Virus record (IMG/VR): IMGVR_UViG_3300049982_000071
Coordinates: 1-30,541 of that record
Length of the DNA stretch: 30,541 nucleotides
Origin: a virus
Taxonomy: Duplodnaviria; Caudoviricetes
Direction: 5' to 3' (one strand)
The notes beneath the pieces were generated by a model. It did no database searches and was not told where the DNA came from. It saw nothing but the letters and a program-made list of their open reading frames with translations. Position numbers and translations under genes: made by a program. The number at the start of each line of letters is the position of its first letter. Positions within the stretch are counted from its first letter, which is position 1. Below, one piece after another: positions 2,256 to 22,650 of this stretch.

Positions 2256-3868
2256 TGCCCGGGGTTCTGCCTACCCCACTGCTGACAAGCGATGGGGGTG
2301 TTCCCGTGGGGTTCCGGTCCTCATCCAGTCTCGTCGGCGCATCCGCAGCGAACGCCGCTATACCCGTCCCAACCGGCGCGGCGATCGGGGATATCGCGGT
2401 CGTCGGCATCTACATGGAGTCGGCGGCAACGGTCACACCTCCGGCCGGGTTCACGCTCAAGGCAAGCCTGCAAACGTCTGCCACGGCCCGCGGTCGGCTG
2501 GACGTGTTCTGGAAGCGGTTGACGGCGGCCGACACGGGAACATACTCGTTCACCTTCACCAGTACGTTCCGTGCTGCCGCTTGTGGACTGTGGTCGGGGC
2601 GGGTAGCTTCCGGCGACCCGTTCGACGGGACGGTTGGGACTGCCGAGTCGACGACTACGGTCACGACGTTGAACGTTTCCACCAGCCCCACAGGGGTGAA
2701 CGGGGACGCGGTCGGGTTCTGGACGAACTTCAACGGCGGGGCCACCTTCACCGCCCCGACGAACTACACCCAGCGGCAATCGGTGTCGAGCGTCATCGCG
2801 CTGGAAACCCGCGACACGGTGGCATCTGGAAGCACCGGCAACGTCAGCGCGACTTCCTCGATCACCGACTTCATGAAGGCGTTCCTCGGTGTCCTCGCCG
2901 AGGCCAGCAGCGGGGGGAGCGTCTCAGCCGACGCGGCGCTATCCGGAACCGGAACCCTGGCCGCGACCGCTACCGGTGCGAAGCCCTCCGATGCAGCACT
3001 GGCCGGTACGGCGACGGCGACAGCCGTCGCTGCCGGGTCCAAGGCCGTCGACGCTGCCCTCTTGGGAACGGGCACGCTCACCACATCCGCGACACCGTCG
3101 AGAATCGCCGACGCTGCACTGGCTGGCACGGGCACACTCTCAACCTCGGCATCCACAGACAAGCCAGTAGCCGCCACCGCTACCGCTACTGGAACACTGG
3201 CAGCCACAGCGACCGGCGCCAAGCCCGTAGATGCGGCCCTCGCAGGCAATGGAACCCTGACGTCGACAGCCGCCTCGAGCAAGACGGTTGCGGCCACACT
3301 GTCCGCCACCGGCACCCTGACGGCATCGGCAACAGTCACCAGTTCCAATGGTGTCGACGCGGCACTCGCAGGCACCGGAACGCTCACCGCTACGGCGACC
3401 GGGACAAAGCCGGGCAACGCGGCACTCAGCGGGACCGGCACCCTGACGGCTACTGCTGCAGCCGACAAGGCCGCCTCTGGGGCTCTCGCGGGGACCGGGG
3501 TACTCACGGGCACCGCGACCCCCACAAGGGTCGCTGCGGGCAGCCTCGCGGCAACGGGAACGCTCACAGCATCTGCCGCGGTCACCACACCCGGCGGCAC
3601 TGTGACAGCGGCCCTCAACGGCACCGGAAACCTCACATCCACCGCACTGTCGGCCAAGCCGTCCGCAGCGGCACTGAACGGTACCGCGACGGCAACAGCG
3701 CAGATCGTCGTCTCCAGGTCGGTCAGCGGTGTCCTCGTCGGCACCGGGTCTCTCGTCGCCTCCGCAGACACTGCCGGCCAGGTCACGATCCGCCCGTACA
3801 CGGGCACGACAGCGCGCCCGACAGGCAGAACACCCCGGCCCTACGCCGGAACCACCAATCGACCTTAG
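2255..3868 (+). CDS. Repeat-containing fibre-like virion protein (537 aa)
   Basis: ATG at 2255 overlaps the upstream TAA. N-terminal beta-rich domain, then 14 repeats of about 20 aa (DAALAGTGTLTATA), then a C-terminal (T-x-RP)x4 tail. Confidence 0.7.
   Translation: MPGVLPTPLLTSDGGVPVGFRSSSSLVGASAANAAIPVPTGAAIGDIAVVGIYMESAATVTPPAGFTLKASLQTSATARGRLDVFWKRLTAADTGTYSFTFTSTFRAAACGLWSGRVASGDPFDGTVGTAESTTTVTTLNVSTSPTGVNGDAVGFWTNFNGGATFTAPTNYTQRQSVSSVIALETRDTVASGSTGNVSATSSITDFMKAFLGVLAEASSGGSVSADAALSGTGTLAATATGAKPSDAALAGTATATAVAAGSKAVDAALLGTGTLTTSATPSRIADAALAGTGTLSTSASTDKPVAATATATGTLAATATGAKPVDAALAGNGTLTSTAASSKTVAATLSATGTLTASATVTSSNGVDAALAGTGTLTATATGTKPGNAALSGTGTLTATAAADKAASGALAGTGVLTGTATPTRVAAGSLAATGTLTASAAVTTPGGTVTAALNGTGNLTSTALSAKPSAAALNGTATATAQIVVSRSVSGVLVGTGSLVASADTAGQVTIRPYTGTTARPTGRTPRPYAGTTNRP
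2921..3775 (+). repeat. 14 tandem ~60-bp (20-aa) coding repeats
   Basis: VSADAALSGTGTLAATATGA / KPSDAALAGTATATAVAAGS / KAVDAALLGTGTLTTSATPS and so on. Twelve units are 20 aa, one is 22 aa and one is 23 aa. Confidence 0.9.
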
Positions 3869-3876
3869 GAGCCACC

Positions 3877-3984
3877 GTGCCGGAAACCCTCCAACTGCAG
3901 GTGACCGTCACGGCTGAGGCCGAGGTCACCAAAGCAGCAGACATCGAAGCCGCCAAGTCGGAAGAGAACGAGGATGAGCGATGA
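3877..3984 (+). CDS. 35-aa peptide MPETLQLQVTVTAEAEVTKAADIEAAKSEENEDER
   Basis: RBS AGGAG at 3867-3871, GTG at 3877, ATGA overlap with the next gene. It exactly fills the gap between its neighbours. Confidence 0.7.
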   Translation: MPETLQLQVTVTAEAEVTKAADIEAAKSEENEDER

Positions 3985-5773: not shown

Positions 5774-6367
5774 ATGCCTGGTTCCACCGCAGTTCCCGTG
5801 CTCCTCACCGACCCGGGCTACCTGTTCGTCGCGCCGCTGCTCAGCACGGAGCCGACCAACACGGTCGCCGGGTCGATCTTCACCGACGCCTGGCCGGCTG
5901 CCTGGATCTCCGCCGGCGCCACGAAGGAAGGCTCGAACTTCACCTACGGGTCGAAGGTGGAGCCGATCTCGGTCGCGGAGTTCTTCGACCCGATCAAGTA
6001 CTCCACCACGGAGCGCTCCGGATCGATGGCGTTCGCGATGGCAAGCGTGACCCTGCACAACATCAAGCGCGCCCTGAACGGCGGCGTCGGCACCATCACC
6101 CCGATCTCGGGTACTGGCGCTACGGCGCTGGCGAAGTTCGAGCCCGTTGCCCCCGGCAGCGAGGTGCGGATCATGCTCGGCTGGGAGTCGACCGATGGCA
6201 CCACCCGCATCGTGATCCGCCAGGCCATCCAGGGCGGCGACATGTCGATGGAGTTCCAGAAGGCCCCGGCGTTCGCGGTTCTGCCCGCCACCTTCAACTT
6301 CGAGGTCCCGGCTGCTCTGGCTGTGTTCTCGGTCTACTCCGCCGGCGCGGCCCGGCTCGGTGCCTGA
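5774..6367 (+). CDS. Major tail (tube) protein
   Basis: Strong RBS AGGAGG. GYLFVAP...WISAGATKEGSNFTY. Lies before the chaperone and tape measure genes. Confidence 0.9.
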   Translation: MPGSTAVPVLLTDPGYLFVAPLLSTEPTNTVAGSIFTDAWPAAWISAGATKEGSNFTYGSKVEPISVAEFFDPIKYSTTERSGSMAFAMASVTLHNIKRALNGGVGTITPISGTGATALAKFEPVAPGSEVRIMLGWESTDGTTRIVIRQAIQGGDMSMEFQKAPAFAVLPATFNFEVPAALAVFSVYSAGAARLGA

Positions 6368-6918
6368 TGCCGGTCGAGATCGTGGCGGAACTTCCGCCGG
6401 AACCTGAGGTGCGGCGCGTCGAGTTCCTCGGCAAGGAGTTCGCGATCGCGTCCAAGATCGGCCTCATGCCGCTGATGCGGTTCGCGCACGCCGCGAAGTC
6501 CGGTCTGGACTCCGACGACATGGAGGGCATGGCGGCGATGTACGACATGCTCCGCCAGGCCATCGCCGACGAGCCTGTGTTCGTATTCAAGGGCCGCCAG
6601 ATCACCCGTGAAGAGGCCAACGACCTTCCGCCCGAAGCGACTCCCGAGGTGCAGGTGTTCGGCGGCTGGGACGAGTTCGAGGCGCACGCCACACGGGAAC
6701 GTGCCGACGACGCGGCGGAACTGTTCGGCGTGATCCAGAAGGTCATGACGATCCTGTCGCAGCGCCCTACTTCGCGGCCCTCCGACTCCTCGGCTGGGCC
6801 GCCAGCCACCGCTCCTACCTCCGGGGAAGATTCATCCTCGCTCGAGGTGGTGCGCCGCTTGAAGTCCAAGGGTCGCCCGGATCTCGCGATGGCGGTCTAC
6901 CGGCAGCAGACGGGCTGA
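6367..6918 (+). CDS. Tail assembly chaperone (gpG-like, 183 aa)
   Basis: TGATG overlap with the tail tube gene. Acidic and helical, with RPT followed by a Ser/Pro-rich tail. Sits between tail tube and tape measure. Confidence 0.85.
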   Translation: MPVEIVAELPPEPEVRRVEFLGKEFAIASKIGLMPLMRFAHAAKSGLDSDDMEGMAAMYDMLRQAIADEPVFVFKGRQITREEANDLPPEATPEVQVFGGWDEFEAHATRERADDAAELFGVIQKVMTILSQRPTSRPSDSSAGPPATAPTSGEDSSSLEVVRRLKSKGRPDLAMAVYRQQTG

Positions 6919-7118
6919 GCCTCGCTGATCTGTGTGACGTGGTCTACGCGATCCAGATCGAGCACACGCAGGCACTGGAGCTCGCCCTCATCTCTCGTGG
7001 GGGCGAGCTCGTTCCCGGTGAGATGACCGACAAGTTCGACGCGTGGCTCTTGGCTGAACCGGAACCGGTCGACCAGGAGAAGGCTCAACTTCTAGCCGCA
7101 TTGGGGGTCGGACCGTGA
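6765..7118 (+). CDS. Tail assembly chaperone -1 frameshift extension (gpT-like)
   Basis: The -1 frame is open: PYFAALRLLGWAASHRSYLRGRFILA...DGLSLADLCDVVYAIQ...QLLAALGVGP*. It ends in a GTGA overlap with the tape measure start and has no good start of its own. Confidence 0.7.
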   Translation, partial: PYFAALRLLGWAASHRSYLRGRFILARGGAPLEVQGSPGSRDGGLPAADGLSLADLCDVVYAIQIEHTQALELALISRGGELVPGEMTDKFDAWLLAEPEPVDQEKAQLLAALGVGP

Positions 7119-10117
7119 CCTCACTCGCGGAAGTCTGGGTAACAGTCAAGCCGGACATGGACAAGTTCGGTCCCGAGGTGAAGAAGAAGCTCACCGCGAT
7201 CGATACCCGCAAGGAAGGCTCCAGGGTCGCCGGCCGGTTCGGGGTCGGGTTCAACGGCGCCTTCGGCGGGATCGTGAAGCATTCGGCGGGGCTGTTCGTC
7301 GGGGCTTTCGCCGCGATCAAGGGCGTGCAGTTCCTGGCCGGGTTCATCAACGACGCGCGCGAGTCGGCGAAGGTCGGGCGGATCAGCGCTGCGGTGATCA
7401 AGTCCACCGGCGGGGTGGCGGGCATCACCGCCGCGCAGCTCGGGGATCTCGCGACCGCGATCTCCAACAAGACCGGCGCCGACGACGAGGCGATCCAGTC
7501 CGGGGAGAACCTGCTGGCCACGTTCACGAACGTCAGGAACGAGACCGGCAAGGGCAACGACGTCTTCAATCGCGCCACACAGGCAGCGGTCGACATGGCT
7601 GCGGCGATGAACGGTGGTGTGGTCGACGCGAACGGTTTGAAGGCCGCGAACATCCAGCTGGGCAAGGCTCTCAATGACCCGGTGAAGGGTGTCACCGCAC
7701 TGTCGAAGGTCGGTGTGTCGTTCACCCAGCAGCAGAAGGACCAGATCAAGACCCTGGTCGATTCCGGGAAGACGCTCGAGGCACAGAAGATCATCCTCGG
7801 CGAGGTCGGCAAGGAGTTCGGCGGCGCTGCTGCGGCGGCTTCTGATCCGCTGACCCGGCTGAAGACGATCGTCGGGAACCTGACCGAGCAGTTCGGCGGC
7901 TACCTGCTGCCCGTGGTGGACAAGTTCGCCACGTTCGCAGGCGACACCGTGGTGCCGAAGGTGTCTGCGTTCGCCGACGTGTTCGCGGCGAAGGTGCTCC
8001 CGAAGCTCAAGGAGTTCGGCGGCTTCATCCAAGCCGAGGTCATTCCCCGGCTCGTCCAGTTCGCCGGGTTCTTCAAGGACCAGATCCTTCCCCGCTTGCT
8101 CGACTTCGCCGGGTTCATCACCGGAAAGGTAGTCCCGGCAGTGGCCGGACTCGTGGGGAACCTGATCACGACTTTCACACCGGCGGTGAAGGACGTCTTC
8201 GGGTTCTTCAAGGCCGAAGTCCTGCCACGGCTGAAGGACTTCGCCGGCTTCCTCGGAACGTCGGTCCTGCCGAAGGTCGCCGCCATGGCCACCGCGCTGT
8301 CGAAGAACAAGGATTTCCTCGTCCCGTTCGTCGCCACGATCGTCACTCTGATCGCTGGCCTGAAAGCGTGGGCCATCGTCCAGGCAATTCTGAACGCGGA
8401 GTTGTTCGCGAACCCGATCGGCCTGGTCGTTCTGGCGATCGCCGGATTGGTTGCCGGACTCATCTACGCCTACAAGCACAGCGAGAAGTTCCGCGACATC
8501 TTGCAGGGTGCGTTCCACGGGATTCAGGCCGCGGCGCAGGCGTTCGCGCCACTGGTGAAGGCCGCGATCGACATCGTCATCGGTGTCTTCTCGCTGTGGT
8601 GGAACTACTACGCGAAGCCGATCCTCACCTTGTTCAGGAACATGCTGGAAGTGGTGTGGAAGGCGGCGCAGAAGTTCGGCCAGATCGTCGCCGCCGGGTT
8701 CAATGCGATCAAGGAACCGGCTGCTGCCGCGATCAAGTTCGTGGTCGGGAAGTTCCTGGACTTCGTGGGGACGATGCTCGACGCTGCGGCGAAGGCGTTC
8801 GGCTGGGTTCCGGGATTGGGGCCGAAGCTGAAGGCCGCGGCGAAGGAGTTCGGGAAGTTCCGCGACAACGTGAACGCTGCCCTGAATGGTGTGAAGGACC
8901 AGACGATCACGGTCACGGCGAAGCTGAATGCCGCGAACGTCAACAACAAGAACGCCACCGACCGCCGGCTTCCACCTGCCGGGTTCGCGGACGGCGGCGG
9001 GGTGTTCGGCGGCGAACGCGGCAAGGACTCCGTCCCGGCGTTGCTGATGCCGGACGAGCACGTGTGGACCACCAGGGAAGTTGCTGCTGCCGGTGGTCAC
9101 ACGGCGATGAAGAAGCTGCGGCGCGCTGCACTGGCCGGCGAACTGAACGGGTACGCCGCAGGTGGAGCAGTTCAGGTCGGGGTCAAGCCACGCACTGCGA
9201 ACGTCGACAGGTTCGCCAAGGATGTTGCGGCCCGCTCCATCGATCTGGTCCGTCCGCAGGCGCAGGCCCTGGCGAACCAGATGTTCGACGTACCGGGAGG
9301 ACCTCCAGGGTCGCGGCGGTCGTTCCGTGGGGTCACGCTGAACCAGCGGACCATCAGCATGCTGCTCAACGCAGAGCGGATCCTCGGTGCGGTCTTCCAC
9401 ATCACGCAGGGGTCGTACTCGACGCGGGTTGCTGCGTCCGGTTCCACCCATGCGGGTGGTGGCGCGATGGACACTGACGGTCCGCGCGGATGGAACACTG
9501 CTGTGCGGGCTTTGCGGGCTGCCGGGTTCGCGGCCTGGCATCGCACCCCTTCGCAAGGTCCGTGGCACGACCACATCCATTCGATCGCCCTCGGGGACAC
9601 CAGCGCGTCACCTGCAGCGAAGGCGCAGATGGCGTCTTTCCGCCGCGGAGGCGACGGTCTGGGGCACGGCATGGCGGCTGGCGGAAAGGTCGGCTCGTAC
9701 GCCGAAGGTGCCTGGAAGATCCTCACCGATCACCTGGCGATGGTGCACAAGGACGAGATGGTTGTCCCGGCTGTGAGTGCAGGCTTCCTGCGCAAGTTGT
9801 TGCCAAACCTCAACAACAGCCGGGTCCGTTCGAAGCTGCACCAGCTCCACGCAGACCACCAGGCACATCTCGCGCACGTGTCACATCTGAACCACGTGAA
9901 CGACATCGACCGCTTCACCCGGTCGAGCCTGGGGACGGTGGGTGCGGACATGACCGACAACGGCGTCACCGGAACCGTGAGGCTGCACCCGGACACGGTC
10001 CGGGAAGTCGCGCGGGCGTTGGCCGGCGAGATCTCTGACAATCCGCCGCAGGTCTACCTGGATAACCGCCGCCTCGATTCGGCGCTGTCTCGTTCAGCTA
10101 TCGGCAGGGGGTTCTAA
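7115..10117 (+). CDS. Tape measure protein with C-terminal M15-like Zn-peptidase domain
   Basis: 1000 aa, Ala/Gly-rich. QLGKALNDP, NPIGLVVLAIAGLVAGLIYAYK, FADGG...DSVPALLMPDEHV. THAGGGAMD...HIH metal motif. Confidence 0.95.
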   Translation: MTSLAEVWVTVKPDMDKFGPEVKKKLTAIDTRKEGSRVAGRFGVGFNGAFGGIVKHSAGLFVGAFAAIKGVQFLAGFINDARESAKVGRISAAVIKSTGGVAGITAAQLGDLATAISNKTGADDEAIQSGENLLATFTNVRNETGKGNDVFNRATQAAVDMAAAMNGGVVDANGLKAANIQLGKALNDPVKGVTALSKVGVSFTQQQKDQIKTLVDSGKTLEAQKIILGEVGKEFGGAAAAASDPLTRLKTIVGNLTEQFGGYLLPVVDKFATFAGDTVVPKVSAFADVFAAKVLPKLKEFGGFIQAEVIPRLVQFAGFFKDQILPRLLDFAGFITGKVVPAVAGLVGNLITTFTPAVKDVFGFFKAEVLPRLKDFAGFLGTSVLPKVAAMATALSKNKDFLVPFVATIVTLIAGLKAWAIVQAILNAELFANPIGLVVLAIAGLVAGLIYAYKHSEKFRDILQGAFHGIQAAAQAFAPLVKAAIDIVIGVFSLWWNYYAKPILTLFRNMLEVVWKAAQKFGQIVAAGFNAIKEPAAAAIKFVVGKFLDFVGTMLDAAAKAFGWVPGLGPKLKAAAKEFGKFRDNVNAALNGVKDQTITVTAKLNAANVNNKNATDRRLPPAGFADGGGVFGGERGKDSVPALLMPDEHVWTTREVAAAGGHTAMKKLRRAALAGELNGYAAGGAVQVGVKPRTANVDRFAKDVAARSIDLVRPQAQALANQMFDVPGGPPGSRRSFRGVTLNQRTISMLLNAERILGAVFHITQGSYSTRVAASGSTHAGGGAMDTDGPRGWNTAVRALRAAGFAAWHRTPSQGPWHDHIHSIALGDTSASPAAKAQMASFRRGGDGLGHGMAAGGKVGSYAEGAWKILTDHLAMVHKDEMVVPAVSAGFLRKLLPNLNNSRVRSKLHQLHADHQAHLAHVSHLNHVNDIDRFTRSSLGTVGADMTDNGVTGTVRLHPDTVREVARALAGEISDNPPQVYLDNRRLDSALSRSAIGRGF
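7889..8293 (+). repeat. Nine 15-aa amphipathic repeats in the tape measure
   Basis: FIQAEVIPRLVQFAG / FFKDQILPRLLDFAG / FFKAEVLPRLKDFAG and so on, with Pro every 15 residues. Confidence 0.85.
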
Positions 10118-11536
10118 GTGGCGACCTGGCAGTTCGTGACGGACTTCCTCACCTCCACCCCCACCGTGAGCCTGGACCTGAACAGCTTCGCTTCGGGGCT
10201 ACAGGTGACTGACGGGTACAACCTGGATCCGCCGAAGTACGAGAAGGGGTATGCGGCCAGCACTCTGCGGCACGGCAGTGTCCCTGTGCGTTCGGTGGCG
10301 CCGAACCGGACCTTGGTCATCCCGATCCAGGTCAACAAGGCGGACCGGGATGCGGCGGCGACCGCGATCGAGCTGCTCGGTCAGCAGATCGCGGTCGACA
10401 ACTTCCTCAAGGTCCAGTTCGGTTCCACGCCCGTGTTCTTTCGGACGTTCGCGGACCCTGACTATGCCTGGGAGGTCAAGAAGACCCTGACTCACGAGTC
10501 TCGGATCGTGCTGTCGCTGGAGGCCGAACCGTTCGCCTACGGCCCCCGGGTCACGGTCACGGGTTCACCGTTCACTGTGTCGAACAACCCGGCGAACGCC
10601 ACGAACCCGTGCAGGTTCGACGTCACCGGCGTCCTGGGTGATGTGCCAACCCCGCTGTTCATGCTGTTCACCTCGACGGGCGGTACGGGCGCGCCTTCTG
10701 GTGTGACGAGCAAGTGGAGCCACATCGCGACCCGCCGCAGGGGCACGCCAGGCAACTACTCGAACGTCATCCAGGGCGAGAACATGACCCAGGGTTTGAA
10801 TGCCACGGTCACCGCTGACGCCACCATGTCCGGTGGGTCGAAGTCGCGGATCTCGTTCGGTACCACGATCAACTCGCTGCGGCTCAGTGACACGTTCCCG
10901 GAGAACGGGACGGCGACGCTCGAGGCCCGCGGTGAGTACCAGGTCTACGGGCACTTCTCGAAGACTGTTGCGGGTGACGTCATCACCGTCCAGCTGGGCT
11001 ATGGCGCATCCTCGACAGCGCCGGTGCTGAACGACACGGTGACTCTTCCTGCGGTGACGGGTCCGTTCACGACGCTGCTGGGGAAGGTCCCGGTTCCGCC
11101 GTGGTCGGACCCTGTGAGCCACGGTTACGCGGGCGGCGCACAGTTGAAGGTGCTGCTGGCGTTCGTGGGTCTGTATGCAGCGCGCGTCTCCGGGAGCGGT
11201 TCGCTGGACGTGGACTACCTGTACTTCGTGCCTGCCGATGACCGGACTCTGATTGTCCGGTGGCCGTCGACGGACACGACGTACGCGATCGACGGCACCA
11301 CCTCCGAGGGTGGGTCGGTGTATGCGCTGAACACGAGCGTGGACACGATCCAGACGATCGCTTCGCCGGCTGCGATCACGGGTGGGGGCGGGTTCCCGGA
11401 GTTGACTCCGGGGGCAACGAACCGGATCCATTTCCTGCGCAACGTGGACCCGACCGGTGTGACGGATCCGGTGACGGACACGACCACGATCCAGGCCTAC
11501 TACTGGCCGCGCTGGCGTGAAGCTGTCCGACCGTAG
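10118..11536 (+). CDS. Minor tail protein, distal tail (Dit)-like, probably with an inserted carbohydrate-binding domain
   Basis: Immediately after the tape measure. NRTLVIPI, LEAEPFAYG, GDVPTP, C-terminal LTPGATN...YWPRW. The middle region QGENM...ADATMSGG...GEYQVY...DVDYLYF is CBM-like. Confidence 0.75.
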   Translation: MATWQFVTDFLTSTPTVSLDLNSFASGLQVTDGYNLDPPKYEKGYAASTLRHGSVPVRSVAPNRTLVIPIQVNKADRDAAATAIELLGQQIAVDNFLKVQFGSTPVFFRTFADPDYAWEVKKTLTHESRIVLSLEAEPFAYGPRVTVTGSPFTVSNNPANATNPCRFDVTGVLGDVPTPLFMLFTSTGGTGAPSGVTSKWSHIATRRRGTPGNYSNVIQGENMTQGLNATVTADATMSGGSKSRISFGTTINSLRLSDTFPENGTATLEARGEYQVYGHFSKTVAGDVITVQLGYGASSTAPVLNDTVTLPAVTGPFTTLLGKVPVPPWSDPVSHGYAGGAQLKVLLAFVGLYAARVSGSGSLDVDYLYFVPADDRTLIVRWPSTDTTYAIDGTTSEGGSVYALNTSVDTIQTIASPAAITGGGGFPELTPGATNRIHFLRNVDPTGVTDPVTDTTTIQAYYWPRWREAVRP

Positions 11537-11545
11537 GCGTACTCT
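11524..11545 (+). promoter_or_regulatory. PafBC/RecA-NDp-like promoter for the moron
   Basis: TGTCCG-N10-TACTCT versus consensus TGTCGG-N10-TANNNT. Confidence 0.5.
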
Positions 11546-11555
11546 GAACGTAAGT

Positions 11556-11608
11556 GTCCCGGCACGGTGGTAGCCGCCCGGGACTGACCGACCTACCGAG
11601 AGGCCGAT
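11556..11608 (+). promoter_or_regulatory. Two-hairpin 5' leader, second hairpin masking the RBS
   Basis: Stem GTCCCGG/CCGGGAC, then CTGAC, then CGACCT-ACCGAG-AGGCCG. Same design as 16349-16406. Confidence 0.6.
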
Positions 11609-11836
11609 ATGACAAACGATAGCAACGATGAATCCAACGCCCGCGCGAAGGCTGCCCTCCAAGCGGCGGGTTACCGCGCCTGGCACCGTCCCGTCCCACC
11701 TGATGCATCATGGACCCGCCACGTCCATGACATCAACGACCCCGAGACTCGCGAGGCGCTCCGGGACTGGCTACGGTGCACCTGTCGCGAGACTCTGGAC
11801 CCGGAGTGCCTGAAGCATGGCGAGGCTAAGTCATGA
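11609..11836 (+). CDS. Moron ORF1 (75 aa): fragment resembling the tape-measure peptidase C-half plus a CxC..CxxH motif
   Basis: RBS GAGAGG. ALQAAGYRAWHR...WTRHVH and CTCRETLDPECLKHG. Confidence 0.7.
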   Translation: MTNDSNDESNARAKAALQAAGYRAWHRPVPPDASWTRHVHDINDPETREALRDWLRCTCRETLDPECLKHGEAKS

Positions 11837-12174
11837 GCGCCAAGACTCTAGCGTCACCTGACAGGTACTACATCCCTGACGATGGCGGTCATGTCTACGA
11901 CCGCTGGGGTGGATACCACATCGCCCGAGATCTCTGGGAACGGCGGACGTCCGAAGGCAGAGTCGACTGGGCGAACCACGACTTCCAGCTACGCGAGTTC
12001 GTCATAGAGGACGGGATCCCTGCGCAGTGGCGTCGCCGCCGAGCGGTGTGCTTGCGCTGCGGTGAGAAGCGGATGGTCGGTGGATCGATCAGGCCTGGCG
12101 ACCGGACGCTGAATGCCGAGTGGTGTGTGCGGCCCACTCTCTGGCAGCGGCTGAAGGATGTGCTCAAGCCGTGA
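11833..12174 (+). CDS. Moron ORF2, hypothetical with CxxC
   Basis: ATGA and GTGA overlaps on both sides. H...CLRC...C. Confidence 0.7.
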   Translation: MSAKTLASPDRYYIPDDGGHVYDRWGGYHIARDLWERRTSEGRVDWANHDFQLREFVIEDGIPAQWRRRRAVCLRCGEKRMVGGSIRPGDRTLNAEWCVRPTLWQRLKDVLKP

Positions 12175-12353
12175 GCGAGTTCGCGCCGCCGCCGTTGCGA
12201 CCAGACCAGTCACTCTTCTGGGTGATGGCGATCAGGAATGGCCAGCTCTACGCCGCGCCCCTGGGTACCCCGTACGACCTGGATGTGTCCGAGGCGTGGA
12301 TCCGCGTGAACTCGACCGATGACCTGCGCGGATTCTTCGGGGCGGGAGCATGA
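12171..12353 (+). CDS. Moron ORF3 (60 aa), resembles a tail-tube N-terminal motif
   Basis: GTG at 12171 overlaps the upstream TGA. GQLYAAPLGTP...EAWI. Confidence 0.65.
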   Translation: MSEFAPPPLRPDQSLFWVMAIRNGQLYAAPLGTPYDLDVSEAWIRVNSTDDLRGFFGAGA

Positions 12354-12667
12354 GCGATGCAGACGTACGCCGTGAATTCCTGTGGGCCAGGTACGGCAAG
12401 CCTGAGAGGGCAGACGCAGCGACCGCACTGGAGACCCTTGGTGTCACCGACGTCAGGCCTGAGGATGTAGCGGCGTTCCTCTACCGCGACCGGGAATCCG
12501 CCGACGCATACGCCGCGGCTAATCTGGAAAATCAAGGCCTCACGGTCCTCGGCACCTACGAGGTTGGCAGCGGTGTCATCGGAGTCCTGGACCTGCGGCC
12601 TGAGATCGCCAGACTTGAAGATCATCTGCATCAGACCCGGGCGCGCGACCCGCACGACGGCGCATAA
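12350..12667 (+). CDS. Moron ORF4, hypothetical (105 aa)
   Basis: ATGA overlap with the upstream gene, RBS GGGAG. Confidence 0.7.
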   Translation: MSDADVRREFLWARYGKPERADAATALETLGVTDVRPEDVAAFLYRDRESADAYAAANLENQGLTVLGTYEVGSGVIGVLDLRPEIARLEDHLHQTRARDPHDGA

Positions 12668-12687
12668 CTCAACACTAGAAACCTACT

Positions 12688-12724
12688 CGAAAGCCCTGGC
12701 CTTACCGCCGGGGCTTTCGCATGT
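12688..12724 (+). terminator. Terminator-like hairpin closing the moron
   Basis: CGAAAGCCCTGGC-CTTACC-GCCGGGGCTTTCG, 13-bp stem with one G-U pair. Confidence 0.65.
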
Positions 12725-12730
12725 CTGGGG

Positions 12731-14398
12731 GTGCCGATGACCGCGCTCAACGTCAGCACCGTCCCCCTCGCCGTCCGCGTCTCGAACGCGCGCGTGGATC
12801 AGATGCTCACCGGCTACCTGCACGGCGACCTGCACTTCACCCAGACCGACCCTGGCGGCTACCGGGCCGCGTCTTTCGTGGTGTCGCAGAAGCTCGGGTT
12901 CCGCACCGACATGATCCAGCCGTACAGCCGGATCTACATCTACAACCAGCGCAACGGCGACACCGTCTTCGAAGGCGACGTCTCCCACCCCGGCAGAAGC
13001 GTCAGCGACGACGGAGCACTGCTCGAGGTCCAGGTCGAGGGCGGCGTCGAACGGCTCAACGACTGGTCCGGTCAGCGGATCTTCATTGACCGCGACATGA
13101 CCGCCTGGACCCTGTCGAACCAGTCCACCAGAGGCGCACTGAGTGCTACCGGAGATGATCTCGGCGGGTCAGGCACCGATTCGTTGACGCTGTCGTTCCC
13201 GAACAGCTTCCACGTCGAGCCCAACTACCGCAGCGAAGTCATCTATAACCGGATCCGGGAAGCCGGTCAGGAACTCGGCCGCATCAACTTCTCCGGCGAC
13301 TTCGGCCTCACCCACGCGAGCTGGCTCGCCCGACTGCTTGTGTCCCCACCCTCAACAGTGTCCCGCGCTGTCGCCGCCAACCTGGGAGGCTTCGGAGGTT
13401 CCGGTGCCGTCGTTGGTGGTGGTATCCCGACCGGCGCGAACGTGGCGTTCCTGCAGTTCATCTGGACCGGCATCGCGTCGAACACCGGCACCGCCGACAC
13501 TGTGTGGGCGTCGCTGTTCGACCCGGTCGTAGTCGTTCGGCTGCACCTGAAGGATGGCTCGTTCAGGACCACCGGTTATGTCGATTGGCTCACTGCCGAC
13601 CAGGTGTGGGAGGACATGCTCGGCGACGTCCTCGCGAGCACGTTCGACGGCTCCAACGCGTCCCTCGATCTGGGCACCGGCTACAACATCACCCAGCTCG
13701 CCTACCCGGACGGCACCACCGCCATGCAGGTAGCCGACGAGCTGATGAAGTTCGAACCCGGCTGCACCTATCTGGTCGGTGCCAGTAACCCGATCAACAA
13801 CAAGTACTCGCTGACATGGATGGCACGCTCGGACGTTCCCCGGTACGAGTTCTCCACATGGTCCGACGAGTACGACGGCGGCGCACAATCCGTCGACCAG
13901 TACAACGAGGCCGTCACCCGGTGGCGTGCACCGACCGGTGAGGTCAGGTCCACCGTCACCACCCAGTCAGTTCCGGAGATGGCCGCGGCAGGCAGGACCA
14001 GACGGTTCTACCAGGACCTCACCGACACAGTCTCGAGCGACGCGAACGCGACCCAGGCGAACGCGACCGTGCTGAACGATCACCGGTTTCCGCTGAACGG
14101 CGGACAGGTCACTGTGTCCCGCCCTGTCGTGGACTTGTGGACGGGCCGCACGGTGCAGCCGTTCGAGATCCAGCCCGGCTACATCGCCCGCATCGTCGGC
14201 GTGAACCCGTCCAGGGACGCACTCAACAACTCGCCCCGCAACGGCTCGAGCCTGTGCCGCATCGTCACCACCGACTACAGCGCCGGCTCGCATTCGGCGT
14301 CGATCGCTCTCGACTCGGTGCCGTACTCGATGGCCCGCGCGATCAGGAACGCCAAGGTCAAGCCGCTCCCGCGATACCTGCGGAACCCATTCCTGTAA
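12731..14398 (+). CDS. Minor tail protein (tail tip/hub-like); start may be ATG 12737
   Basis: 555 aa. FTQTDPGGYRAASF...TVFEGDV...VEGGVERLND pattern of actinophage post-Dit tail proteins. Confidence 0.8.
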   Translation: MPMTALNVSTVPLAVRVSNARVDQMLTGYLHGDLHFTQTDPGGYRAASFVVSQKLGFRTDMIQPYSRIYIYNQRNGDTVFEGDVSHPGRSVSDDGALLEVQVEGGVERLNDWSGQRIFIDRDMTAWTLSNQSTRGALSATGDDLGGSGTDSLTLSFPNSFHVEPNYRSEVIYNRIREAGQELGRINFSGDFGLTHASWLARLLVSPPSTVSRAVAANLGGFGGSGAVVGGGIPTGANVAFLQFIWTGIASNTGTADTVWASLFDPVVVVRLHLKDGSFRTTGYVDWLTADQVWEDMLGDVLASTFDGSNASLDLGTGYNITQLAYPDGTTAMQVADELMKFEPGCTYLVGASNPINNKYSLTWMARSDVPRYEFSTWSDEYDGGAQSVDQYNEAVTRWRAPTGEVRSTVTTQSVPEMAAAGRTRRFYQDLTDTVSSDANATQANATVLNDHRFPLNGGQVTVSRPVVDLWTGRTVQPFEIQPGYIARIVGVNPSRDALNNSPRNGSSLCRIVTTDYSAGSHSASIALDSVPYSMARAIRNAKVKPLPRYLRNPFL

Positions 14399-14421
14399 GG
14401 ACAATAATGAACGGGGACACC

Positions 14422-15282
14422 ATGGGACGCGTCTTTTTTTATGCACCTCATCCCGACGACGAGACGCTCTCTGCAGGTCTGGCACTGATCTACTACATCG
14501 CAGCCGGGTTTGATGTGCACCTGGTCTCCATGACGCTCGGAGACGCGCTCGGTGTGGCGAACACCCTCAACGGCGCGGCCAACGGAACCCCGCTGGTCTG
14601 CTCCACACCGAGCGATCACCCCTACATCCATAACCCAGTCCGGGAAGGGTACGCGCCGCTCACCGTTGAGGACATCGGTGTGGCCCGTACAGCTGAGGCA
14701 AGGTCGGCTCTGGGTGCGATGGCGATGATCCCACCCAACACGGGAGTCACCCCGGGCCAGGTGTTCCACCACGTAGTGGGTCTGCACGACGGCTTCGGCG
14801 CACCTGGGCAGGGTTCGTCCACGGCGCCGGTGACCCGTGAGGGGATCGACGCGGCGAAGGCGGCGATGCTGCCGTTCATCCAGGACTACCCGAACAGCTT
14901 CCACTACACGATGTCGCCCGCGGACCACCACCACGACCACGCGGCCTGCGGGATCGCGCTACGGGAGATCAAGGCAGAGAACCCGACCCTGCTCGGCGCA
15001 CCGCGGTTCTTCGTGTCCAGGCTGTACTGGGCGAGCTCGCAGCCTGACGGCCACTACCAGCAGGACCTGCTGGACGAAGCTGCAGGGACTCTTGCCTGGT
15101 TCAACTACGCCGGCGCGAACTACGACCGGTACGTGGCGTGGCTGAAGAACCAGGTCCAGAAGGCGTACCGCCACTGGAACCCTGCAGCCGGCGCGTACGG
15201 GATCGGCTACCACCAGGTGACCTCGCAGTTCGCGTCCAACCTGGGACCGTCTGTCGTCGTCGGGAATCTCTGGCACGGCTGA
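14422..15282 (+). CDS. PIG-L/LmbE-family Zn-dependent N-deacetylase
   Basis: VFFYAPHPDDETLSAG (PHPDDE), VSMTLGD, RTAEARSALGAM, DHHHDH (HxDH). RBS GGGGA before ATG 14422; alternative ATG 14407. Confidence 0.9.
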   Translation: MGRVFFYAPHPDDETLSAGLALIYYIAAGFDVHLVSMTLGDALGVANTLNGAANGTPLVCSTPSDHPYIHNPVREGYAPLTVEDIGVARTAEARSALGAMAMIPPNTGVTPGQVFHHVVGLHDGFGAPGQGSSTAPVTREGIDAAKAAMLPFIQDYPNSFHYTMSPADHHHDHAACGIALREIKAENPTLLGAPRFFVSRLYWASSQPDGHYQQDLLDEAAGTLAWFNYAGANYDRYVAWLKNQVQKAYRHWNPAAGAYGIGYHQVTSQFASNLGPSVVVGNLWHG

Positions 15283-16317: not shown

Positions 16318-16339
16318 TGTCGGTGGTTGACGAGACAAT
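16318..16339 (+). promoter_or_regulatory. PafBC/RecA-NDp-like promoter for the HNH gene
   Basis: TGTCGG-N10-GACAAT (context CTGTCGGTG), one mismatch in the -10 element. Confidence 0.5.
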
Positions 16340-16348
16340 GAAGTAGGT

Positions 16349-16406
16349 GACCCCCGCGCGCTGCGAACGCCGGGGGTCTGACGAACACCTACCGAGAGGT
16401 GCGCGC
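16349..16406 (+). promoter_or_regulatory. Two-hairpin 5' leader masking the HNH RBS
   Basis: Stem GACCCCCG/CGGGGGTC, CTGAC, CACCT-ACCGAG-AGGTG. Confidence 0.65.
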
Positions 16407-16835
16407 ATGAGTGACCTTATAACCCGCTTCCTGGCCAAGACAGAGCCGGGGCCGGGTGACTGCTGGACGTGGATCGCACACAAGGATAAGGACGGCTACG
16501 CCAGGTTCCAGGTGAACCGGAAGGCGCGCCGTGCTTACCGCTGGTCCTACGAGTACCACATCGGCCCCATCCCGGACGGCTTGGTTCTCGACCACCTGTG
16601 CCGCAATCGCGCCTGCGTGAATCCCTGGCACCTGGAGCCAGTAACCAATCTCGTCAACATCCAGCGTGGAGAGCGCCCGAATCGCGAGGCCTGTATTCAT
16701 GGCCACCCGTTGGATGAGGCAAATACCTACTGGCCAAAGAATCGCGGAGGTCAGCGGGTCCGCGCCTGTCGGGAGTGCAACCGACTAGCGGTTCGGCGCT
16801 ATCGCGAGAAGCGATCACAGAGAGCGGTGAGTTGA
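16407..16835 (+). CDS. HNH endonuclease (free-standing, homing-type) with C-terminal Zn finger
   Basis: CWTW...GYARF...AYRWSY...LDHLCRNRACVNPWHLEPVTNLVN and CIHGH...RACRECN. Confidence 0.95.
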   Translation: MSDLITRFLAKTEPGPGDCWTWIAHKDKDGYARFQVNRKARRAYRWSYEYHIGPIPDGLVLDHLCRNRACVNPWHLEPVTNLVNIQRGERPNREACIHGHPLDEANTYWPKNRGGQRVRACRECNRLAVRRYREKRSQRAVS

Positions 16836-17999: not shown

Positions 18000-18018
18000 A
18001 TCGGCGTACGCTAGCAGC

Positions 18019-18270
18019 ATGGACCAGCCAGTCTCCCACATCATCACGTGGGAGACCTGCGACGAGTACTTCTACGGCTGGGCTCCTCCGGGCGCGATCA
18101 GTGCCATGGACTTCACCATCGCCCGCATCTGTAACCGCCCCAAGGGTCACCCTCACGGGCACGACTACTGCCACGTCTACCCTGCCGGGTTCTTCCCGCT
18201 GCGGGAGAACAAGAGCGAGCGGCGGCGGCGGCTGATCAACGAGAAGAAGCAGGCTGCCTTCAGCAGGTAA
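18019..18270 (+). CDS. Hypothetical protein with C..CxRPxGHxxxH motif, possibly leaderless
   Basis: No SD. TACGCT (-10-like, 18007-18012) lies 6 nt upstream of the ATG. Confidence 0.55.
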   Translation: MDQPVSHIITWETCDEYFYGWAPPGAISAMDFTIARICNRPKGHPHGHDYCHVYPAGFFPLRENKSERRRRLINEKKQAAFSR

Positions 18271-18308
18271 GCCAAGTCAACGCCAAGCTATGCCAAGACT
18301 TGGCATAG
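18271..18308. repeat. GCCAAG direct repeats plus a perfect palindrome
   Basis: GCCAAG at 18271, 18282 and 18292. CTATGCCAAG-A-CTTGGCATAG at 18288-18308. Confidence 0.8.
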
Positions 18309-18357
18309 AGCGCACCCCACCTCATGCCCCCGTTGCGGGCTGAGGTGGGGCGCTTTC
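18309..18357 (+). terminator. Terminator of the late operon
   Basis: AGCG-CA-CCCCACCTCA-T-GCCC...GGGC-TGAGGTGGGG-CGCT-TT, located where + and - transcription converge. Confidence 0.7.
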
Positions 18358-21450: not shown

Positions 21451-21768
21451 TCACGACAGGACCCACTGAACAGCGGTGTAGGACTCCAGCACAATCTTGG
21501 CGGCACGGCGATACCGGAGCAGGGTGTCCAGGTTGCCGTCTTCCCACTCACCGACCTCGTTGTCTGCGAACAGCGCATGCGCTGCCGCCTCGATCTCCAG
21601 CGCGGACGGTGTGCGCCACTCTTGGTCCGCCGCCTTGTATCCGGTCTCCCAGCCTTCCTCGAAGGCTCCCTGCGTGGTCGAGAACTCCAGCACCTGGTCC
21701 TCAGCTTCGAGTTCGGCAACGAGTGCCTGGTAGGCCTGGTTCGCTCTAGCGTTCAGCGTGCTCATCAC
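21451..21768 (-). CDS. Hypothetical protein (105 aa)
   Basis: GTGA overlap with the Ltp gene stop. IEAAAHALF...YRRAAKIVL. Confidence 0.7.
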   Translation of the reverse strand: MMSTLNARANQAYQALVAELEAEDQVLEFSTTQGAFEEGWETGYKAADQEWRTPSALEIEAAAHALFADNEVGEWEDGNLDTLLRYRRAAKIVLESYTAVQWVLS

Positions 21769-22436
21769 AGTCCCGCCTTCGTCACGCCGTACACAGCCTG
21801 CTTGTGGGTGAAGCCCTCACCAGCGTCCGACTCGAGCTGGCGGATCAGACCCGACCGGGAGAAGTGCGACATCTTCAAGTAGGACTCCGCCGACTTCGCT
21901 GCCTGCTCGTTCCAGTTCACCTTCACGTGGTCCACGGCGAACGTCGCATCCGCCACCGAGAACCCCTCGCCCGCATCCGACGACAGCTGCCGGATCAGAC
22001 CCTTGCGGCTGAATGCCGTGAACGACAGGTACGACTCGGCTGAGCCGATCGCCTGCACCTGGGACGCTGTCATCGGCGGCGCCGGCTTGTGCGTCACCTT
22101 CGGGGAAGGCTGCGTGGTGGGTTTGGCGGCAGACGGCTTGGTCGTCGGCGTGGGACCGTTGTCGACCGGCGTACCCGCCTGGGACGTCACGGTCACCGGC
22201 GCCTTCGCGTCCTGGCTTGACAGTGCGCCCCCCACGAGTGCCGTGCAGCCGGCCATCACGGCGATGATGCCGACGAACACGCCGAGGATGATGTTGCGGA
22301 CGGTGTGCTTCTTCGGCGGCTTGGGTGCCTGGTGCTGACCGCCCTGCCACAACGGGCTGTTGCCGACCACGCTGTCTGGCGGTACCGGGTCGCCGGGTCG
22401 GTAGGTGTTGCGGTCTGGCTGGCCGTAGTCACTCAT
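21765..22436 (-). CDS. Ltp-family membrane-anchored superinfection exclusion protein
   Basis: RBS GGGGAG, ATG 22436. TM segment, P/T linker, two repeats AESYL...FSRxGLIRQLxSDAGEGF...A..AV. Confidence 0.85.
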   Translation of the reverse strand: MSDYGQPDRNTYRPGDPVPPDSVVGNSPLWQGGQHQAPKPPKKHTVRNIILGVFVGIIAVMAGCTALVGGALSSQDAKAPVTVTSQAGTPVDNGPTPTTKPSAAKPTTQPSPKVTHKPAPPMTASQVQAIGSAESYLSFTAFSRKGLIRQLSSDAGEGFSVADATFAVDHVKVNWNEQAAKSAESYLKMSHFSRSGLIRQLESDAGEGFTHKQAVYGVTKAGL

Positions 22437-22439
22437 GAT

Positions 22440-22650
22440 TGGGTCTCCCCCTGTCTGGTGGGAGGTCCTGCCGCTCTCCTGCCGCTCCGACATGAGAAGG
22501 ATTCCTCCCGAACTTGTGGTCTGAGCGTGAAACCTGGGCTCATTCGGGTCCTCGCCTAGAGGGTGGATCTTCTCCGGCATGGAAGTCTGAGTCGCAGGTC
22601 AGAGGCTCTTACGGGTTCAACATAGCATCAAACGGGTTCATTTGGGAACA
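22440..22650. other. Probable attP region
   Basis: Non-coding gap downstream of the integrase. GGGTTCA-type boxes at 22536, 22546, 22613, 22634 and 22644. CGCAGGTCAGAGG motif. Crossover core not identifiable. Confidence 0.5.

Follow-up and report, generated by a model that had tools for sequence, protein, structure and literature searches.

A cassette inserted between the Dit and tail-tip genes

The window analysed here is the whole of virus record IMGVR_UViG_3300049982_000071 in IMG/VR (Duplodnaviria; Caudoviricetes), 30,541 bases long with about 65% G+C. Between its gene for the distal tail protein (Dit) and the gene in the tail-tip position lies a cassette of four small open reading frames (ORFs), ORF1 to ORF4, which fill positions 11609–12667, successive ORFs overlapping by ATGA or GTGA; a promoter-like motif and a hairpin leader precede them and a trailer with a closing hairpin follows (Table 1). 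An earlier note on this DNA, made from the letters alone, had described four overlap-coupled ORFs (75, 113, 60 and 105 amino acids) splitting Dit from the tip, and the arrangement is as described, Dit being assigned by PHROG 33. None of the four ORFs has a Pfam match or a PHROG match below E 0.06. A nuclease match was absent for ORF1, ORF3 and ORF4 in the PHROG comparison and the best match of ORF2 stood at E 0.29; by this comparison the cassette leader is not followed by an HNH nuclease gene.

Table 1. Features of the cassette, its flanks and related genes in the window (aa, amino acids)
Feature	Position	Strand	Remarks
Promoter-like motif, TGTCCG-N10-TACTCT	11524..11545	+	TGTCCG resembles the PafBC -26 element; TACTCT as -10; GGCG just before the -10
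Leader	11556..11608	+	GC-rich hairpin (11556-11584), TGACCGAC linker, small stem around GAGAGG ribosome-binding site; from the predicted fold
ORF1, 75 aa	11609-11836	+	MTNDSN start common to cassettes; residues 13-42 peptidase-like, then a Cys/His tail
ORF2, 113 aa	11833-12174	+	CxxC; weak likeness to head-closure family over 24 columns
ORF3, 60 aa, GTG start	12171-12353	+	Conserved short-protein family G-x-x-Y-x-A-P-x-G-T...W; weakly like tail-tube N-terminal strands
ORF4, 105 aa	12350-12667	+	Marginal likeness to head-tail adaptor N-termini
Trailer	12667..12725	+	Conserved 22-nucleotide stretch, then 12-bp closing hairpin (12689-12718) with no T run; common to L010, L311 and L312
Dit, upstream flank	10118..11536	+	PHROG 33, E 6.9e-7; last codons include the TGTCCG hexamer
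Tail-tip-position gene, downstream flank	12737..14398	+	Possible start GTG 12731; homologues directly 3' of Dit in L002, L009 and L010
Tail tube protein	5774..6367	+	Pfam PF25681, E 1.6e-4, below gathering score; relative of the sister-cassette 133-aa protein, weakly of ORF3
Peptidase-like domain near tape-measure C-terminus	9347..9694	+	H-x6-D at residue 779, HxH at 820-822; relative of ORF1
Major head protein, neck genes, tail tube, tape measure, Dit, endolysin, tyrosine integrase, Ltp-type superinfection-exclusion lipoprotein, WhiB	encoded in the window		PHROG/Pfam

The cassette is an insertion at the Dit–tip junction. Among 31 related viral loci that we gathered, five contain both the end of Dit and the downstream tip gene, and in three of these (L002, L009 and L010, the tail tube of L009 being 97% identical to that of the window) the two genes abut and the site is empty; the remaining two hold an HNH gene (L006) and an insert of about 250 bp (L007) at the junction. 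In L028 the gene after the Dit end did not match the tip gene, and in L001 the tip homologue has been relocated (6167–8083), upstream of the head-closure genes and far from Dit. Furthermore, a soil contig (run X3) links position 11532 to 12728, the letters between them not being known, which places the insert at about 11533–12727. By the definition of a phage moron that we assume here, which also asks for expression from the prophage, two features speak for one: the insert is absent from the same site in relatives (L002, L009 and L010), and it carries promoter-like and terminator-like signals of its own at the sequence level. The earlier note's description of a self-contained moron thus holds and can be extended, in that the cargo changes from record to record between constant ends. 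Searches of GenBank phages with ORF1 to ORF4 and the L010 cargo (tblastn) returned nothing, and with the cassette DNA (blastn) only chance matches with E of at least 1; no locus was retrieved from IMG/VR with ORF2, ORF3 or ORF4.

Fixed ends enclose exchanged cargo

The same leader and trailer occur at another site of the tail operon in L010, where they enclose a gene of 132 amino acids whose N-terminus resembles ORF3 (hhalign 59%, E 9e-5). The trailer pattern retrieved two further records from JGI metagenomes, L311 and L312. In each of them the leader is nearly identical and the two cargo genes are unrelated, and their two sites again differ from those above; the ends are thus common to four records. 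These two cassettes sit just before (L311) and just after (L312) genes that read like the PIG-L deacetylase-family gene of the window (14137–15282, 3' of the tip gene), which is kept in relatives.

The Dit–tip site itself also carries exchanged cargo in soil runs X2–X5, all from one study. Thus, one contig runs from the Dit end into the leader and through 321 other letters to the trailer and the tip start; in another, 299 other letters stand between ORF3 and the trailer, ORF4 being replaced by another gene; and a third (run X5) joins a DNA relative of ORF2 to the trailer over 17 letters. Start and stop codons mark the joints, the cargo being exchanged gene by gene. These contigs were assembled from metagenomes and matched at a likeness of 85%, and the sequence beside several of the joints is short; any single joint is weak for these reasons, and the two with 75-letter sides are firm. 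The element is a cassette with fixed ends and variable cargo, the cargo presumably being swapped by recombination in the conserved ends.

Expression signals and the origin of the leader

The earlier note had pointed to a promoter-like motif, a structured leader and a closing hairpin, and these fared differently. The motif TGTCCG-N10-TACTCT occurs once in the window, where 0.17 occurrences are expected; however, 17 of 100 shuffles also have one, and a sigma-70 promoter scan called nothing there. A TANNNT lies at the same distance (10 nucleotides) before the leader hairpin in all five cassette-type leaders, and the GTC of the -26 element in two of them, those of the window and G009, not in L010, L311 or L312. 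The consensus given for PafBC promoters is tGTCgg(N10)tA(N3)T (PMC8635444, accessible text). The window and G009 agree with the PafBC-dependent promoters outlined there in spacing and in the GTC triplet; on the other hand, the motif is missing from three of the five cassette leaders, and the window hexamer overlaps Dit codons. Given this overlap, PafBC control of the window cassette is no more than a possibility, and DNA-damage control of the cassette, resting as it does on a PafBC-type -26 element in two of five leaders, is doubtful. G009 has a perfect TGTCGG, as TGTCGG-N10-TAGCCT. Within the wider leader family described below, GTC at the PafBC position is found in five of 75 leaders (0.3 expected), and a damage-responsive subset of the family probably exists.

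As for the leader, the arms of its hairpin are conserved in 75 related leaders, whereas the stability of the window hairpin alone does not exceed that of shuffles (z -1.3 and -0.8). The window leader is near-identical in L311 and L312 and similar in L010, G009, L034 and L035. A tight leader pattern retrieved 114 IMG/VR loci (L197–L310), of which 86 remained once redundant loci and those with no hairpin candidate were set aside, and filtering by energy and start codon left 75; a TANNNT stands 6–16 nucleotides before the hairpin in 39 of the 75 (shuffle mean 9.4, maximum 19). The family (hairpin, TGACCGAC, ribosome-binding site, GTCGATATG) is widespread in actinophages and heads mostly HNH or endonuclease VII genes. 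Thus, an endonuclease is the best PHROG match for 47 of the 71 first ORFs of at least 40 amino acids behind related leaders, many of the last 22 being cut by short flanks, and no virion family appears among the matches listed for the 71. An Rfam scan of the window gave no match for the leader. A loose leader pattern had returned 120 loci with only two true leaders, and these loci were dropped from later scans; the small second stem, found in 68 of the 75 leaders, is unusable as evidence since the search pattern fixed most of its bases and the count is partly circular.

These distributions suggest that the cassette leader reuses the expression module of mobile HNH genes. The free-standing HNH endonuclease genes of actinophages have the same hairpin-TGACCGAC-ribosome-binding-site leader family, and one of them occupies the same Dit–tip junction in L006 and another lies in the window at 16407; the cassette differs from them in having no nuclease gene and in having a conserved trailer. 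The HNH region of the window (16318–16835, 5' of the endolysin) combines a leader of this family with TGTCGG-N10-GACAAT, and the L006 HNH gene has a perfect PafBC motif, which suggests a damage-inducible subset of homing nucleases. The same leader also heads a 59-residue Cys/His-rich ORF on the reverse strand of L034 and L035 (about 3000–3960), with no trailer and facing what by eye is a convergent methyltransferase-like gene.

The closing hairpin (12689–12718) was borne out: it beats shuffles (z -3.7 and -4.1), none of 200 being as stable, though it lacks a T run and a terminator scan did not call it.

A truncated tail-tube family in sister cassettes

Cargo 1 of L311 (984–1385) encodes a 133-residue derivative of the tail tube protein (tube profile P 2.8e-13, 0 of 300 shuffles). 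Its homology to the tube family is clear from a profile hidden Markov model (E 5.6e-13 and 9.4e-9 among 28,174 frames). A 71% identical copy is found in the closest relative, G009 (L045 1965–2366, minus strand), behind the same leader type and after the lysis genes, and opens with the same six residues as ORF1. The family comprises seven members including L311 cargo 1, all of 129–134 residues (P0013–P0019), which align with the tube family at an hhalign probability of 98% and are about 30% identical to tubes. Tube residues 58–92 and 163–189 have no counterpart in it, so these are internal deletions. In the one pair with DNA that was tested, nonsynonymous divergence (dN) was 0.18 and synonymous divergence (dS) 1.65, a dN/dS of about 0.11, by which measure the family is under purifying selection. 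Residues 58–92 presumably form the long hairpin that stacks tube rings, and the deletions appear, if our assignment of strands is right, to remove strands of the inner sheet.

Such a protein has engineered counterparts. In lambda and SPP1, deletion of the long loop halts tube growth (PMC9022992, PMC8718954) and long-loop mutants of the tube proteins are dominant negative (PMC9022992), as far as the accessible parts of these reviews report. The gpV and gp17.1 mutants lack the stacking hairpin, do not extend the tube and act in a dominant-negative manner, and the sister-cassette protein likewise lacks tube residues 58–92; however, the natural protein also lacks 163–189, is only about 30% identical to tubes and has a model without a tube-fold match, and ORF3 would hold two strands only. 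Judged from its sequence, the 133-residue derivative is the best candidate for a natural assembly blocker.

At the place corresponding to the G009 short tube protein, the window has a second likely moron (about 18003–18330), by eye after the holin-position genes, with GGCG-TACGCT six bases before an ATG, possibly leaderless, an 83-residue Cys/His-rich ORF (18019–18270) and a closing hairpin.

ORF3 belongs to a conserved family of short proteins

The close relatives of ORF3 have 58–65 residues. A profile search of 1.84 billion proteins gave 17 matches, seven of which were dropped before alignment (six long proteins with 4–11 repeated, propeller-like matches, and one protein of 2,465 residues); the remaining wider family consists of nine proteins of 48–96 residues and one 161-residue fusion, the short form thus accounting for 9 of the 10 non-repeat matches. 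One distant member begins MTNDS, as the first codons of cassettes do. The family keeps its short length across very different sequences, and 11 of the 17 listed changed codons among ORF3 variants are synonymous; on this evidence we regard ORF3 as a real, conserved gene. Other searches with the ORF3 profile or alignment yielded nothing acceptable: none was found in JGI metagenomes; a single stretch in GTDB genomes, from an unrelated membrane protein, was rejected; and one weak match across 33 related viral records (G032, E 0.0015 for one genome) was not accepted.

The claim that ORF3 resembles the tail-tube N-terminus is not borne out at the sequence level. Compared pairwise with the window's own tail tube, ORF3 shows nothing (E 34; p 0.25). 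At the level of family profiles there is a weak signal: hhalign gave E 7.6e-4 and 0.0014 (about 0.009–0.0008 over all profile depths), and the tail tube was the best of 13 structural and lysis families aligned to ORF3 (E 0.0014, 0 of 100 column shuffles). As the outcome of a targeted test the likeness is suggestive, but it would not survive a library search. The broader description of the products as resembling virion-protein fragments is accordingly firm for 30 residues of ORF1 and weak for ORF3, with independent support from the tube derivative of the sister cassettes.

ORF1 carries part of a peptidase-like domain

Residues 13–42 of ORF1 align with residues 796–824 of the tape measure with 15 of 30 positions identical (BLASTP pairwise E 6e-8; z 14.9 relative to 200 shuffles). 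In 60 comparisons of ORFs with window proteins no other pair stood out clearly, and here the earlier note's proposal of a likeness to the tape-measure peptidase is upheld. The segment corresponds to the C-terminal part (helix, strand, HxH) of a peptidase domain shared by the tape measure and an endolysin; the same domain (H-x6-D...HxH) forms the endolysin of G009 (L045 3222–3971). A profile of seven such domains, which includes the window's own tape measure, finds ORF1 at E 0.0038 among 28,174 frames (hhalign 89%). The HxH motif, the preceding helix and the AWHR strand are kept in ORF1, but the H-x6-D, with two presumed metal ligands, which the tape measure has at residue 779, is missing; ORF1 is thus not an intact enzyme of this kind. 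The domain, for which Pfam gave no match, is presumably a zinc peptidase of the LAS/M15 type. The ESM Atlas offered no usable match for ORF1 or ORF3. A recent duplication of the phage's own tape-measure DNA was rejected as the source of ORF1, the best DNA match being about 22 nucleotides.

In G010 (L010 20399–20569), a 56-residue ORF before the endolysin ends in an AWHR...HIH scrap of the same domain and runs into the beginning of the lysis gene that follows; it has the look of a remnant left by a replaced endolysin.

Such a scrap, and several properties of ORF1, are what one would expect if the cassette were recombination debris, that is, fragments of structural and lysis genes that were picked up behind a selfish HNH leader and now drift with no function. 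Thus, ORF1 has a fragmentary catalytic site and is a singleton, and it is not covered beyond its first codons in five soil runs; in addition, third-codon-position G+C is 0.69–0.82 in the cassette ORFs against 0.81–0.92 in structural and lysis genes. Drifting debris, however, would not readily account for four frames that are all intact and coupled, for the mostly synonymous changes in ORF3 and the constant shortness of its family, for purifying selection on the 133-residue family, or for the lack of DNA-level likeness between ORF1 and the phage's own tape-measure gene. We therefore think this explanation improbable.

ORF2, ORF4 and an ordinary moron site

ORF2 and ORF4 are singletons at 90% in exact cluster look-ups. 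Against the head-closure family, ORF2 scores E 0.0026 over 24 columns (hhalign, 0 of 100 shuffles); ORF4 reaches E 0.064 against PHROG 35314, annotated as a head-tail connector, and E 0.035 against the adaptor family (hhalign, 2 of 100 shuffles). For comparison, 15 control small phage ORFs gave one match in 210 comparisons at E of at most 0.01 and none at 0.003 or below. The comparison is uneven for ORF3, since a family profile was used for it but single sequences for the controls; its own single sequence stands at E 0.0096.

These weak signals bear on a simpler explanation, in which the locus is an ordinary hypervariable moron site whose expression signals serve various small genes for defence or fitness. 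The likenesses of the window's ORFs to virion proteins would then be either incidental or very old, and the 133-residue sister protein would be the sole virion-derived product. We consider this possible, although on the unlikely side. It agrees with the weakness of the ORF2 to ORF4 signals, with an ORF3 model that is a small hairpin-plus-helix domain having a free-standing family, with the absence of a virion match in 12 of the 13 other cargo ORFs and with the generic nature of the leader, which mostly precedes endonucleases. It does not explain why three of the four window ORFs match a virion family at E of at most 0.003, ORF3 by its family profile, when none of the 210 single-sequence control comparisons does.

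Genome setting

The gene content of the window (head, tail, integrase and superinfection-exclusion genes) indicates a temperate siphophage-type genome, and WhiB together with the base composition suggests an actinobacterial host group. The runs listed with the window sequence are soil metagenomes, no RNA run being among them. The Ltp-type lipoprotein (21765–22580, minus strand), annotated for superinfection exclusion (PHROG 4980, E 6e-40), adjoins the integrase. The tail-tip-position gene gave no PHROG match and no Pfam match below E 0.1.

Proposed function

The reading that we favour, tentatively and at somewhat under an even chance, is that in the lysogen the cassette's own promoter directs its transcription and the small products bind the assembly partners of related phages that come in, whose tails would then not be completed. 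The promoter-like motif and the hairpin leader, a module that may have been taken over from a mobile HNH gene, would drive a set of interchangeable mini-proteins, some of them related to virion proteins. Expressed in the lysogen, these truncated virion-like proteins would bind tail-tube, tape-measure or neck partners and so poison assembly in rival phages; as rivals escape, new cargo exchanged in between the conserved ends would refresh the set; and the closing hairpin would be read through during late transcription to reach the tip gene, a late-operon read-through that we only infer.

This proposal of assembly blocking has precedents among known prophage systems. Tab, as the accessible text of PMC10884400 presents it, is a tail-blocking moron of 83 residues in a late operon that acts through the tape-measure protein and has an adjacent anti-Tab. 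The Tab/anti-Tab pair of Pseudomonas phage JBD26 resembles the cassette in several ways: a small moron that related phages lack lies in the late operon under a promoter of its own, and its target class is tail assembly, as we propose for the cassette (PMC10884400, same portion). Unlike Tab, which in that portion is given as having no sequence similarity to known proteins, the cassette holds several exchangeable genes, some virion-related, and no counter-defence gene has been identified in it. The cassette may thus be likened to a Tab-type moron at best by inference. Tai/Ati are tail-assembly blockers borne by prophages or satellites, which is the function proposed here; according to what could be consulted of PMC11364771, however, the target of Tai is the central tail fibre or tail needle in enterobacterial phages, virion-derived or swappable cargo is not described there, and the systems were compared by description. 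Prophage-encoded look-alikes of FimU (PMC12952977, seen in part) are a case of an assembly component being imitated in defence, but what they imitate is a pilus protein of the host, at the surface, and not a virion protein of the phage itself.

Several observations count against assembly blocking. First, a blocker aimed at protein families that the phage itself uses calls for a counter-defence, but no such gene was identified. Second, ORF1 is a singleton among proteins of 41–132 residues, and the G010 peptidase scrap looks like debris. Third, ring co-assembly by the 133-residue protein is doubtful because the deletions exceed the loop tip and appear to take whole strands; its AlphaFold model is weak (predicted local distance difference test score, pLDDT, 61) and matched no tube structure. 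Fourth, 13 other ORFs, found in cassettes or standing behind related leaders, yielded a single match to a virion family at E below 0.01, that of L311 cargo 1; as far as sequence comparison goes, virion-like cargo is present but is not the rule. Fifth, the tube likeness of ORF3 is frail in most comparisons. Beside the pairwise failure against the window's tube given above, the hhalign probability, while rising with profile depth from 4% to 17–25%, stays low; no tail-tube annotation appeared among the matches of the search in 1.84 billion proteins; ORF3 and the 133-residue derivative do not match each other (E 0.036–0.13); and the ORF3 model, also weak (pLDDT 70), is a small hairpin-plus-helix domain. 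Fold searches of these two weak models found no tube fold (best Z 2.4 and 3.8), and Foldseek found no match at E of 0.001 or below. Being uninformative, the searches would leave a tube fold possible for both proteins.

The earlier note had also raised decoys for immune sensors. In that case the proteins would be made early in infection or induction and soak up host sensors of virion proteins, so that the late proteins escape abortive infection. Avs-type sensors of the tail tube, tape measure and head-tail connector exist (PMC13581612, accessible part); decoys would do no harm to the phage's own assembly; and the PafBC-type motifs in the window and G009 would time their expression to DNA damage. 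The details fit less well. In the portion of that report available (PMC13581612), Avs16 is modelled as binding the tube beta-hairpin and Avs18 a helical tape-measure segment; ORF1 has a piece of the peptidase instead. Moreover, a mimic recognized by a sensor could also trigger it. By our own assignment of strands, which is assumed, the 133-residue family appears to be without the hairpin region. We regard decoys, too, as a rather remote prospect.

A bolder version of assembly blocking would see in the locus a slot kept for a rotating library of mini-proteins, with a homing-endonuclease leader captured to build it. The mini-proteins would be cut from virion genes of the phage itself (those for the tail tube, the tape-measure peptidase, head closure and the adaptor), and each would poison or mask one assembly interface of a rival, so that the defence would have evolved by truncation of structural genes. 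This we think unlikely.

Implications

Our literature search covered titles and the openings of abstracts, with few subscription papers and without supplements; none of those listed describes a cassette of this kind, its leader or a truncated tube homologue of natural origin. The solid novelties are the cassette with fixed ends and swappable cargo and the conserved family of truncated tail-tube proteins in its sister copies. The fixed ends offer a search handle for many uncharacterised accessory genes of actinophages. The accessible parts of the reports on Tab and Tai do not describe them as related to virion proteins, and it is from engineered mutants that dominant-negative tube proteins are known. 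A tube family that occurs in nature, is conserved and has internal deletions, in a promoter-bearing cassette, offers a direct test of truncated structural genes as weapons or decoys.

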